64,000 nt of DNA from Eledone cirrhosa (lineage: Eukaryota), in NCBI GenBank assembly GCA_964016885.1, contig OZ024763.1:10168001-10232000 (forward strand). The letters are read 5' to 3'. Shown here one piece after another: positions 1-33,248 of this stretch. The position numbers and the translations under genes are program-made. Under the pieces are notes generated by a model. The model was not told the DNA's origin and did not search any database. It saw nothing but the letters and a program-made list of their open reading frames with translations. How positions within the stretch are numbered: position 1 is the stretch's first letter; every line of letters begins with the position of its first letter.

Positions 1-699
1 ACGAATTTCTTTTTATACCCAGTGAATTTCGCTGCAACGGCATTTCACTGTATACATATATATAAATGTGTAACAGATACATATACATACATAAATACAT
101 ACATACATACACACACAATGATAGGAAGAGCTGCAATGATGAGATGAGGTCAGCTGGTGTTATTAAAGAGGAAGCTGACCAGATGACCAATATATTGCAA
201 TGGAGAAGGAATGCCTGATATAAGGGAGGCAGGAGGCGATGGCAGTACTGCAAGGCATCGGCCTCTTATGTGATAAGGTCGGTCGCAGGTCGATTTGCTT
301 GAAACAACAGCCAAATCTATCTTCAAATCATATCCTACCGTGTTTAATTAAAGAAGCACACATTAAATAATAGACCCGGCGAAAAACACTGTTCTGAACG
401 GAAACTATAAAAGATACGAAGCTTGGATGGTCATGGCTAGAATATTGTTAATTGATATTTGGTGAGATCGATCAAGGTTGATCTGGGGTTAAACAATAAC
501 GAAAGAGACAAAATGTGAAGTTGACAGATTTGTTGTAGTGGTTGCTGGGACTAGACAGACGTTTAAAGATATCGAAGTAAGCCACGTTGATATGGAGATA
601 AAGATATATGTATATTTAAAGAGAGGTGTTGATAGAGAGACATATATATATATATAGAGAGAGAGAGAGGTGTAGATAGACGTATGTGTGTGTATATAC

Positions 700-730
<31 letters not shown>

Positions 731-862
731 CATATATATATACATATTTATATATATACATATATATACACATATATACACACATATATACACATATATA
801 CACACATATATACACACATATACACACACATATACACACACATATACACATATATATATACA

Positions 863-1282
863 TATATTAATAAGAGGAATTCCAACTTTGTCTGATTTAC
901 TCGTTTTATTTACAATCCTTTAAAATTTATAATGGTATTATATTGAAATAGTATGATAGAATATTAAATGTTAAGTGTTAATTGAACAAGTACTTTCATG
1001 CTTTCGCAATCTTCAGGTTCATAATGTGTGGTGACAGTCAAGTTGCAATTTTCAACTGGATAGTTTAACTAATATCAATCACACACAGTTGAAAATTGCA
1101 AACTTGACTGTCACCACACATTATGAACCTGAAGATTGCGAAAGCATGAAAGTACTTGTTCAATTAACACTTAACATTTAATATTCTATCATACTATTTC
1201 ATTATAATACCATTATAAATTTTAAAGGATTGTAAATAAAACGAGTAAATCAGACAAAGTTGGAATTCCTCTTATTAATATA
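863..1282. mobile_element. Fold-back inverted repeat (arms ~863-1058 / ~1086-1282), Penelope-like terminal-repeat remnant
   Basis: Arms are near-perfect reverse complements (atattaataagaggaattcc... / ...ggaattcctcttattaatat); each carries a hammerhead motif; sits among (TA)n tracts. Confidence 0.8.
1124..1162 (+). ncRNA. Minimal type I hammerhead ribozyme motif (mirror copy at 983-1021 on -)
   Basis: tgaac-CTGAAGA-t tgc gaaa gca t-GAAA-gtac-TT-gttca: stem I tgaac/gttca, conserved core, palindromic stem III. Confidence 0.75.
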
Positions 1283-1490
1283 ATCTTCTATACACAATCA
1301 TACACACCCGTGTATATTTATCTATCTCTCTATATATATACATATATATATTACATAACTATATATATATATACACACATATATATATATATATACACAC
1401 ATATATATATATATATACACACATATATATATATATATACACACACACATATATATATATATACACACACACATATATATATATATATAT

Positions 1491-1531
<41 letters not shown>

Positions 1532-1684
1532 TATATATATATATATACACACACACACATATATATATATATACACACACACACATATATATATATATAT
1601 ACACACACACACATATATATATATATATACACACACACACATATATATATATATATACACACACACACATATATATATATATAT

Positions 1685-1751
<67 letters not shown>

Positions 1752-1907
1752 TATATATATATACACACACATATATATATATATATATACACACATATAT
1801 ATATATATATATACACATATATATATATATATATACACATATATATATATACACATATATATATATATATATATATACATATAATCACACACACATATAT
1901 ATATATA

Positions 1908-1942
<35 letters not shown>

Positions 1943-2086
1943 TCACACACACATATATATATATACACACACATATATATATACACACATATATATACAC
2001 ACACACATATATACACACACACACATATATATACACACACACACACACACACATATATACACACACACACACATATATACACACAC

Positions 2087-2131
<45 letters not shown>

Positions 2132-2186
2132 TATACAATGTGTGTACGTTCAAGGACAAACGGATAAATGTTAAGGAGGAACTTAC

Positions 2187-2308
2187 CCAGCAAGGCCACC
2201 GAAAAGAAACTTGATGGCATTTGGGATGGGTCTAGAGGCTTTAGGTGCGGCCGGAGGGGGTGGTGGGACGGCAGGTGGATTTGGTGGTGCGGAGCTGGAG
2301 TCAGACAT
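2187..2308 (-). CDS. SLC25A11: Mitochondrial 2-oxoglutarate/malate carrier, first coding exon
   Basis: Translates [41 protein letters not shown] then GG|GTAAGT donor; KFLFGGLAG is the recognisable OGC N-terminal motif. No further exons recognised in the window. Confidence 0.85.
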
Positions 2309-2398
2309 GGTCCTGTTGTGATTGATATTAGTTAAACTATCCTAGATCCGCCGACCTTACTCTAATTTACTTTCTCCATTCACTGAAGAAAACAGCAA

Positions 2399-2408
2399 GT
2401 CACGTGAC
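2399..2408. promoter_or_regulatory. Palindromic E-box (CLEAR/USF type) GTCACGTGAC
   Basis: Exact 10-bp palindrome about 90 bp upstream of the SLC25A11 ATG. Confidence 0.4.
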
Positions 2409-3109
2409 GAGACACATATGGAATATCTCCTCCTCCCATTCCCCCTCCCCATCCAGTAATACGGCAGCAGTTGGTGGTGGTAGTAGTAGTAGAAGTTGTA
2501 GTGGTGGTGCTTGTAGCAGGCGCACTTATATTTGACGTACATATATATGTATGTATGTATATATATACATTATTCTTTGAGAGAGCCATACTGCCAATAA
2601 AAACACTAGTACCACCTAATAGTTACTTTAGTTTTATTATTAGTCAGGTATCTACTCCTTTCCTCAGTTAGTATAGTAATTGGATGGCTGTTTAAACATC
2701 AAAGCTCTTTTGTCACACATCCTGTGACCTCCTCACAGACCATCCTTGCTCCTTTTTGTTTACCTCTTTTGATTTTGTTTTATTTACTCCATTTTTTCTT
2801 CCTATAGCTAGATGAAGTGACGAAGCTAAAACTCCGCAGTCACTGCCACTTTTCCACAAATATCATTATTTTTATGTTTACTTTTCCATGCCGGCATGGG
2901 TTGGACAGGACATTTTAAGGCAATGTTTTACTGCTGGATGTCCTTCCTAACATCAACCCTTTTAGTTGCTTTTTACAACATACAGGGATACAGTGTAACT
3001 ATTCCAAACAGGATACACACACATATACGCATGCAGAGACCGAGAGGGAGTGCTTGGAAACTGAAATGTCTTCATGTAGCTCACAGCCTTCTACAAATTG
3101 GGCAGTACG

Positions 3110-3880
3110 ATTAGTGGAAACTCCGCCTTGGCGTCCTATAGAGGGTTAGTGGGGGATAAAAGCGATGCCGTTCTTGGGAAAACTCTGGGCATCAACGAAA
3201 ATCAACTAGCCACATTTTGCAGGAGGACTTTCGCTCCAGGGCCCATGGATTATTTCCAGAAATCCCCGACCTGGTAGAACTAGGGGGAACATTTGCCAGT
3301 TTAGGATAAACTCTACAGGCATGGAAGTGCCATCAGCGGGGCCTTTCCGAGATGTGTGCAGGGCAATAAAACCTTCCTGTACCTACTTGTACAGTGTCCA
3401 AGCATAGTGGGTTTATGTCGAACACCTGCAGTCGCATGTAGGACGAACCCGGCTATCAACTGAGTCCATTGCCCTAATGCCTTCCTTTAGGAAGGGCAGG
3501 CAGTTTTTATATGTCTAGTGGCCATGGCGAAAGAGGTTGTACAGTGGACACATTTGAAAGGGTTTCAGGCCAGCACTTTGCTCTTTAGCAAAGTTCTGAT
3601 GAATTTTTACAGGTTTAACTTGAAAAGGAAAACGGGGTTGAGAGGAAAGTGCTGCCTTCCAAGCAGTTTGTTGTAACGTGGGTGAGCATGGCCTGAGTGG
3701 ATAGGCCTGCTCTGAGTGTGCACCTGTAGATTAGACGAGGACAACTGGGATATGGTTCTAGATATCAGGGCAGCTGTGGTTTTATGTTTTTTCTTCTTCT
3801 ATGAGCAGCTCTCAAACGTCTCCTCCCTATTGAGGAATTCCCATTGTTAACATTTTTTAATTGTTACCTTTGTTAATTGT
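3110..3880 (+). mobile_element. Degenerate L1/Tx1-like LINE 3' end
   Basis: Frameshifted remnants resembling LP.RDKLYRHGS plus a Cys/His motif, followed by a T-rich 3' UTR; similar in style to 31200-31790. Confidence 0.45.
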
Positions 3881-21745: not shown

Positions 21746-21852
21746 AGTAAGTATGTTTTGAAACAGCGAGCAAGTTTGAAATCACTGTATTTTTTGACTA
21801 AAGAAATTTTAGCCTGCTAGTGGGGTTTAGAACCCTCAGAGAAATGGAAAAA

Positions 21853-21912
21853 GATGAGTATTGAACTCACATCTTTGGTTATCCAGACCACTGTGCTACC
21901 ATTACACCAACA
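21853..21912 (-). other. tRNA-like Pol III head (SINE head or tRNA pseudogene)
   Basis: - strand tggtgtaatggtagcac...gtgagttcaatactc (A and B boxes); no complete cloverleaf; lies between ~75-100 bp direct repeats. Confidence 0.45.
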
Positions 21913-22042
21913 CATCACCTATCTCCTTCCATTCAAATTAGAAGCTACATTCTTAGCAAGTATGATGGATAGTAAGTATGTTTTGAAACAGCGAGCAAGT
22001 TTGAAATTAGAAAAGAAATTTTAGCCTGATAGTGGGGTTTAG

Positions 22043-25607: not shown

Positions 25608-25643
25608 TCTTCTGATGAAGGACTAGCCTCCGAAACGTTAAGA
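25608..25643 (+). ncRNA. Minimal hammerhead ribozyme motif
   Basis: tctt-CTGATGA-a gga ctagcc tcc-GAAA-cg-TT-aaga. Confidence 0.6.
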
Positions 25644-32964: not shown

Positions 32965-33248
32965 TTATAGATACACTGCTATATATATTTCGGTGACAAC
33001 CATCATTGGCTGTGACCTCTTCAGGCCGTCTGAATTGGTGTGGGAAAGACAGGTACACAAAACATATGATTCCAGTTCCTCAGAGAAATAACAACACAAC
33101 CAGGAGCTGGACATATCGATGTATTGATGGAGTAAAACCCACTTCAACAACATGTGTACCTGTCTTTCCCACACCAATTCGGACTGCCTGAAGAGGTCAC
33201 AGCCAATGATGGCTGTCACCGAAATATATATAGCAGTATATCTATAAT
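32965..33248. mobile_element. Fold-back element with hammerhead motif at 33183-33237 (+) and mirror at 32975-33029 (-)
   Basis: actgc-CTGAAGA-ggtcacagcca atga tggctgtcacc-GAAA-tatata-TA-gcagt; nested in an outer inverted repeat ~32920-32963 / ~33717-33762. Confidence 0.85.

Follow-up and report, generated by a model that had tools for sequence, protein, structure and literature searches.

The 26-nt match between the centre of an intronic palindrome and the DNA next to the SLC25A11 start codon belongs to a set of about a dozen cases detected in the Eledone cirrhosa genome in which a head-to-head insertion of a Penelope-like element (PLE) carries a short copy of nearby host sequence at its centre. 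The spacer probably represents a scar of integration with a local template, formed as two cDNA ends were joined. The interesting part is the pattern in the family and not the SLC25A11 locus. The origin of the head-to-head inverted ends of PLEs is undefined in the available literature, in which in vitro work stops after first-strand priming, and fillers copied from the insertion's own flanks show that assembly of the palindrome centre takes place at the target site.

Palindrome anatomy and Penelope-like identity

The following features were identified in the first part of the window, which is the whole stretch of 64,000 nt that was analysed.

863–1058, − strand: short arm, an inverted pseudo-LTR without a 3′ tail, ending in (TA)n (in longer copies, the RT/GIY-YIG ORF is followed by this sequence)
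1085–1282, + strand: long arm, the pseudo-LTR core, beginning at the usual 5′ end of the family (arm alignment, sibling copies)
1283–1325, + strand: 3′ tail of about 45 nt, on the long arm only, end approximate (sibling comparison)
851–866, no strand: weak candidate for a 16-nt target-site duplication with 1331–1346, the word being present six times in 1–3000 (repeat count)
1331–2110, no strand: (TA)/(CA) microsatellite target region to the right of the insertion, with a similar tract on the left (sequence reading)
1058–1083, + strand: 26-nt inverted copy of 2317–2342 that fills the junction, spacer proper 1059–1084 (exact match, unique in the genome, own-flank test)
2317–2342, − strand: source of the spacer copy, at −34 to −9 relative to the ATG of SLC25A11 (exact match, genome-wide pattern search)
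2187–2308, − strand: first coding exon of SLC25A11 (2-oxoglutarate/malate carrier), with the element inside intron 1 of about 7.35 kb (exon stretches, domain and homologue matches)

Judged by its sequence, the palindrome is a pair of inverted pseudo-LTRs of a Penelope-like element in intron 1 of SLC25A11. The two arms (863–1058 and 1086–1282) gave a 197-nt alignment with one mismatch and one 1-nt indel, each arm finishing in (TA)n, and a 28-nt arm pattern had 1,419 exact matches in the genome. Fragments located directly upstream of the same pseudo-LTR at loci L063 and L065 matched RVT_1 and GIY-YIG above the Pfam cut-offs (three of the four fragments scanned). ORFs of the parent element in longer copies were broken and encoded RT followed by a C-terminal GIY-YIG, and 115 homologues were found, many with the same domains. 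At L063:3030-6909, a 3.7-kb element with RT/GIY-YIG fragments between inverted 436-nt ends represented a larger form of the palindrome structure. As in EN+ PLEs, the parent element had RT plus a GIY-YIG at the C terminus, the pseudo-LTRs had an inverted copy at the 5′ end, and a tail of 30–45 nt was present at one end only. A CX4CXXC motif precedes GIY-YIG in the longer copies and may correspond to the Neptune/Nematis linker of PMC8557442, which is a lead only.

Described PLEs (PMC8557442, PMC3846280, PMC2377424) share the RT with C-terminal GIY-YIG, the hammerhead-like pseudo-LTR, the head-to-head inverted copy, the tail at one end and the (TA)n targets. In the available text of these papers the inverted structure is of undefined origin or proposed to be self-primed, whereas here short fillers were traced to the insertion's own flanks. 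Host DNA captured between PLE pseudo-LTRs has been described in the same papers, with spacers of 0.9–1.5 kb and a whole gene (larger captures in PMC3846280). No description of own-flank fillers at an inverted PLE junction was found in the literature searched, which was mostly open text without supplements and lay outside much of the early Penelope work; supplements may contain L1 template distances or PLE junction lists. The available text of PMC9977147 and 10.64898/2026.07.22.740005 held nothing on junctions.

Six further SLC25A11 exon stretches were found in the neighbouring 30 kb. The three exon stretches tested matched the mitochondrial carrier family, one of them above the curated cut-off. 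The last exon showed 91% identity to octopus 2-oxoglutarate/malate carriers; exon 1 alone gave no match as a homologue query. The ATG at 2308 agrees with the N-termini of the annotated octopus carriers.

Spacer donors at this and other loci

The reverse complement of 2317–2342 is exactly 1058–1083, and the exact match extends on neither side. The donor lies 9–34 nt upstream of the ATG at 2308, as the earlier note had stated, and about 1.25 kb from the palindrome centre. The bounds given there for the spacer were corrected to 1059–1084, as base 1058 is shared with the left arm and 1085 is the first base of the right one. A pattern search of the whole 3.0-Gb genome returned two matches to the 26-mer, namely these two sites, and none to the reversed control, so the 26-mer is neither a dispersed repeat nor present in any other element copy; a dispersed repeat, or presence in all copies, would have spoken against local copying. 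The donor is still in place, and the sequence was therefore copied and not moved.

A chance match or an assembly artefact has a negligible probability. Palindromes and microsatellites are hard to assemble, and the spacer had zero coverage in the contigs of three other runs, a result uninformative for or against the junction. On the other side, about 6e-11 matches of 26 nt are expected by chance per 10-kb neighbourhood, the pattern recurs at independent loci, and raw reads covered the junction. In a RAD-seq run from another sample and study under the same species label, the depth was 1.6–2 over 1045–1077, as would result from two reads spanning the left-arm/spacer junction, which may stem from a single molecule. 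The raw-read check proposed earlier thus gave support at a depth of about 2 in this one run and nothing from the contigs of the three others.

The spacers of other copies were also compared with their own flanks, as the earlier note had proposed. Centres that looked foreign were picked by eye with 10 kb around each, and 28 of 29 were parsed (L076 was left out). A centre passed when its own flanks (within 5 kb) contained an exact match of at least 15 nt and none of 48 other loci gave one as long. Sorting the spacers automatically into element and foreign was not sound, loose settings calling this locus element and strict settings calling stutters foreign; for this reason the own-flank versus control match was the only measure reported. 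Thirteen of the 28 centres passed, including this locus, with donors 0.35–4.2 kb away. Nine of these were clear (a match of 20 nt or more that exceeded the best control by 8 nt or more), and at this locus the 26-nt match compared with a best control of 12 nt, none of the 48 controls being as long. The other four (L055, L067, L069 and L074) were marginal, with 15–20 nt near the control maximum or of low complexity. The lengths and distances of the own-flank matches were as follows.

This locus: 26 nt, 1.25 kb
L052: 23 nt, 0.47 kb
L054: 31 nt, 2.6 kb
L055: 16 nt, 0.85 kb
L057: 20 nt, 4.2 kb
L058: 85 nt, 1.06 kb
L060: 83 nt, 0.53 kb
L061: 29 nt plus mosaic, 1.07 kb
L062: 39 nt, 0.35 kb
L067: 15 nt, 1.05 kb
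L069: 20 nt, 3.7 kb
L074: 17 nt, 1.07 kb
L078: 38 nt exact (59 nt at 98%), 0.48 kb

For the remaining 15 of the 28 centres no local donor passed, among them L059, L068, L073, L077 and L056 (13 nt only). Without selection, 9 of 57 spacers of 24–160 nt passed within 2.5 kb against 56 controls (10 with L054, at 2.6 kb), and all nine were already in the eye-picked set. These 57 were taken from 66 sites with spacers of this length, the other nine looking like (TA)n or element sequence from their ends. Among the 13 passes, the donor had the same orientation in eight, was inverted in four and had both in one; it lay on the tail side in four, on the other side in eight and without an assignable side in one. 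Four of ten donors examined were in repeats common to other loci, and for these an identical copy elsewhere is a possible source. All donors were colinear with genomic DNA, and the ten examined for features had no evident coding feature or splice junction. The spacers are site-specific and taken from their own neighbourhood, without preference for gene leaders. Together with the unique 26-mer, these other loci support local host sequence as the template of the spacer, copied while the element integrated.

A pattern search with both inner 12-mers intact, which favours full-length ends, found about 975 head-to-head centres in the genome, a count in which nested matches can enter one site twice. 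Gaps of 0–17, 18–23, 24–45 and 46–160 nt were found at 868, 41, 42 and 24 centres, respectively. Most centres joined the two ends directly at a microhomology or repeated the element's own end in stuttered form. Stuttering of the 5′ end prevailed among the longer centres, a few of which were (TA)n. An identical direct join was present in 35 of the first 50 short centres listed, and its sequence suggests a 2-nt microhomology between two alike ends.

Some centres were of other kinds. The 127-nt spacer of L059 (G000:C3:320744814-320744964) begins with a piece of the arm and consists of drifting 6-nt units; within 15 kb no donor turned up, and the spacer resembles the product of repeated slippage synthesis with a telomerase-like pattern. 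At L077 (G000:C1:240333217-240334053), two tailed arms surround about 370 nt of single-copy sequence. Being single-copy, this centre is no duplicate, and the locus may consist of two insertions or contain inverted host DNA. The spacer of L079 has 60 genomic copies and is part of the element ORF region, and the centre of L080 matched repeats in other loci.

Proposed junction formation during integration

The 26-nt loop copies host DNA from 1.25 kb away, and we consider it probably a neutral filler made during integration of the element. Among 63 palindromes with two complete arms, one tail was present in 52, none in 11 (strict pattern) and two in none; 15 palindromes with an incomplete arm are left out of this count. 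Both arms had the full 5′ end in 39 of 58 long-spacer palindromes, the next base being variable on each side and rarely the genomic one. The arms differed by a median of 2 changes within a locus versus 9 between loci (55 loci). Since no palindrome had two tails and the full 5′ end was often present on both arms, priming from both DNA ends is favoured. Throughout the family, variable bases precede the conserved arm start (AC, TG, CG and CC as well as the genomic TT), a pattern that untemplated or cap-templated additions at a fixed transcript start would produce.

We infer that integration would proceed in the following way. The element endonuclease would cut both strands in a (TA)n tract, and each DNA end would prime reverse transcription of the same short pseudo-LTR RNA, one at the tail site and the other at an internal site. 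Both cDNAs would reach the RNA 5′ end, making their 3′ ends alike and not complementary, and these ends would be joined via 1–2 nt of microhomology, often after aborted rounds of synthesis. At a few per cent of sites, one end would first prime on host sequence within a few kb and copy 15–90 nt. At this locus, the tail-arm cDNA would have primed on four matching bases beside the donor, copied 26 nt and joined via one base pair. No empty site or fresh insertion was seen.

Work with purified protein bears on the first of these steps. A purified anole Penelope-like protein cleaved and extended both strands, favouring AT-rich DNA, and started at two RNA sites bounding the tail, the later steps being termed unvalidated in the available text (PMC11167929). 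The open question of the inverted ends becomes directly testable in this existing system. It is possible, though we hold it only tentatively, that both ends at a double-strand cut serve PLEs as primers, each for a different one of the two known start sites, and that the element's own RT then bridges the alike cDNA ends by reaching over as much as about 4 kb to host DNA or nascent RNA. If so, the missing integration step would have left its fossil record in the roughly 1,000 palindrome centres of this genome.

A single cDNA started at the tail could also take up the filler, fold back into the second arm and join the other flank at a TA microhomology. Such a snap-back would equally yield one tail and near-identical arms. 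Snap-back of a cDNA on itself or on nearby DNA is known for R2 insertions (PMC11371274), and self-priming on an antisense template has been proposed for PLEs, Penelope palindromes included (PMC3846280). We regard it as unlikely here, as in most cases the two arms reach an identical full 5′ end and the base that comes next varies independently on each. A weak argument in the same direction is that, among six direct joins examined, five had the full end on the short arm and not on the tail arm, four of these being nested in longer spacers. The R2 junctions show the same extra synthesis primed by the cDNA 3′ end before joining, but from a single cDNA, in an engineered system and without a fixed inverted terminal structure (PMC11371274). 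L1 twin priming, like the two-end priming preferred here, starts from two ends on one RNA and joins by microcomplementarity to give an inversion. Its second primer is internal and its arms barely overlap, whereas the present arms are both copies of one 200-nt stretch up to an identical 5′ end and form a near-perfect palindrome.

Concerning the filler itself, the donor at this locus continues with four bases that equal the tail-arm start (1-nt offset, right end) and has one base in common with the short arm (left end), and this difference suggests the tail-arm cDNA as the copier. At other loci the microhomology at the filler ends was 0–5 nt, and the priming end deduced from it was ambiguous at most loci. 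As in locally templated junction insertions generally, a match beyond chance to a retained nearby sequence was found together with short microhomology at the filler ends. The copying enzyme could be the element RT or a host repair polymerase, with local DNA as the likelier template. The donor distances are far beyond the 30–50 bp of Pol theta (PMC7165422) and the 15 bp of L1 (10.1101/2024.08.27.596794) and leave both enzymes as candidates.

Fillers from flanking DNA are known at LINE 5′ junctions (PMC4760211), and L1 templated insertions have been described with templates typically within 15 bp of the site (10.1101/2024.08.27.596794; also PMC11702581, 10.1101/2024.12.14.628481). These extra nucleotides resemble the present spacers in that flank or element sequence is copied into the junction with 1–2 nt of microhomology (PMC4760211; 10.1101/2024.08.27.596794; PMC11702581). 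The LINE and L1 fillers join cDNA to genomic DNA, whereas here two cDNA ends are joined and the donors lie 0.35–4.2 kb from the centre. Pol theta insertions share the repeated aborted synthesis at microhomology-poor ends and the stuttered end copies; their template is defined as lying within 50 bp, and their tracts rarely exceed 10 nt (PMC7165422). The donor at this locus, about 1 kb from the insertion edge, falls outside that definition. The stuttered element-end spacers at other loci would fall within it, but the single tracts of 20–85 nt copied over kilobases do not.

The same scar would result if the element RT had jumped onto the nascent SLC25A11 transcript. The strand copied is likely the sense strand of the gene, which fits RNA as well as DNA. 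The longer microhomology at the tail-arm end makes this minus strand the template, the donor is near the gene start, and templated insertions at breaks in human cells favour transcribed, promoter-proximal donors (10.1101/2022.09.30.509517). Resection on that side would leave the same strand single-stranded, and the donors at all loci, irrespective of side and orientation, were colinear with genomic DNA and had no coding feature or splice junction. An RNA template is accordingly unlikely, and copying from local DNA remains our preferred reading.

Long perfect palindromes are fragile at the centre. A spacer-less palindrome could have broken there after insertion and been repaired with a local templated patch. 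In human cells break-induced insertions come from 0–2 kb and beyond, and insertions from 0–2 kb around the break are common, with donors enriched within 2 kb (10.1101/2022.09.30.509517). The common direct join has one full end and the long-spacer sites have two in 39 of 58 cases, which is more than later breakage would leave. We consider later repair very unlikely, and filling during integration is retained.

Predicted RNA structures and the putative SLC25A11 leader

Two further features lie in the arms.

1124–1162, + strand: minimal type I hammerhead-like motif in the long arm (motif scan; stems I and II predicted, z = 0.15)
983–1021, − strand: short-arm copy of this motif, within the predicted stem and sense with respect to the pre-mRNA (motif scan, fold prediction)

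A minimal type I hammerhead is defined by CUGANGA and GAAA cores, stems I and II and an NUH site. The motif was kept in 84 of 130 distinct element copies. Its predicted fold was no better than those of shuffled sequences, and no hammerhead was returned by an Rfam gathering scan of the window. Folding of the minus-strand RNA predicted a 197-bp hairpin with −311 kcal/mol, in agreement with the hairpin of about 195 bp expected earlier in the intron 1 pre-mRNA. Long duplex RNA is often A-to-I edited, and this hairpin could well be edited without the loop mattering.

The earlier note had also suggested a link of the loop to the gene leader, with a possible role in splicing or editing. A loop selected as an antisense element that pairs with its own leader, and so regulates splicing, editing or ribozyme cleavage, would draw on the long predicted hairpin and on a leader–loop duplex predicted at −44.5 kcal/mol in isolation. 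A full 26-bp duplex within a stem-closed loop of 26 nt is sterically unlikely. The insertion is young, with two arm differences as is typical of the family, and an exact match needs no selection. The equivalent spacers elsewhere copy arbitrary flanks (repeats, microsatellites and noncoding-looking sequence, irrespective of side and orientation). A like hairpin is expected from the hundreds of sibling palindromes and from any copy of this family in an intron.

The donor may, moreover, be intronic. Ahead of the ATG, at 2312–2370 of the window (− strand), the sequence contains donor-like splice sites at −62 and −52 together with an acceptor-like site at −4. From their positions, these sites could define a 5′-UTR intron of 48–58 nt, in which case 2317–2342 would be its end and would lie outside the mature leader. 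A role of the spacer as a regulator of SLC25A11 is unsupported, and we consider such an antisense element highly improbable. The position of the donor beside the start codon looks like mere proximity, and a scar without consequence for the gene, the neutral option of the earlier note, is most likely, donor choice elsewhere looking arbitrary.

Upstream of the SLC25A11 start, a GTCACGTGAC box was observed near −100 of the ATG, as was a minisatellite with a 38-bp unit and at least 50 copies from window position 3880 to about 6000 and beyond. Further CTGANGA...GAAA motifs resembling hammerheads of other families were present in the window at 25612 (+), 33188 (+), 33024 (−), 34104 (−) and 13457 (−), of which those at 33024 and 33188 are divergent near-identical copies, perhaps a second head-to-head pair. 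A weak tRNA-like Rfam match (33.5 bits, several stem positions unpaired) at 21846–21916 (−) is probably a tRNA-derived repeat.
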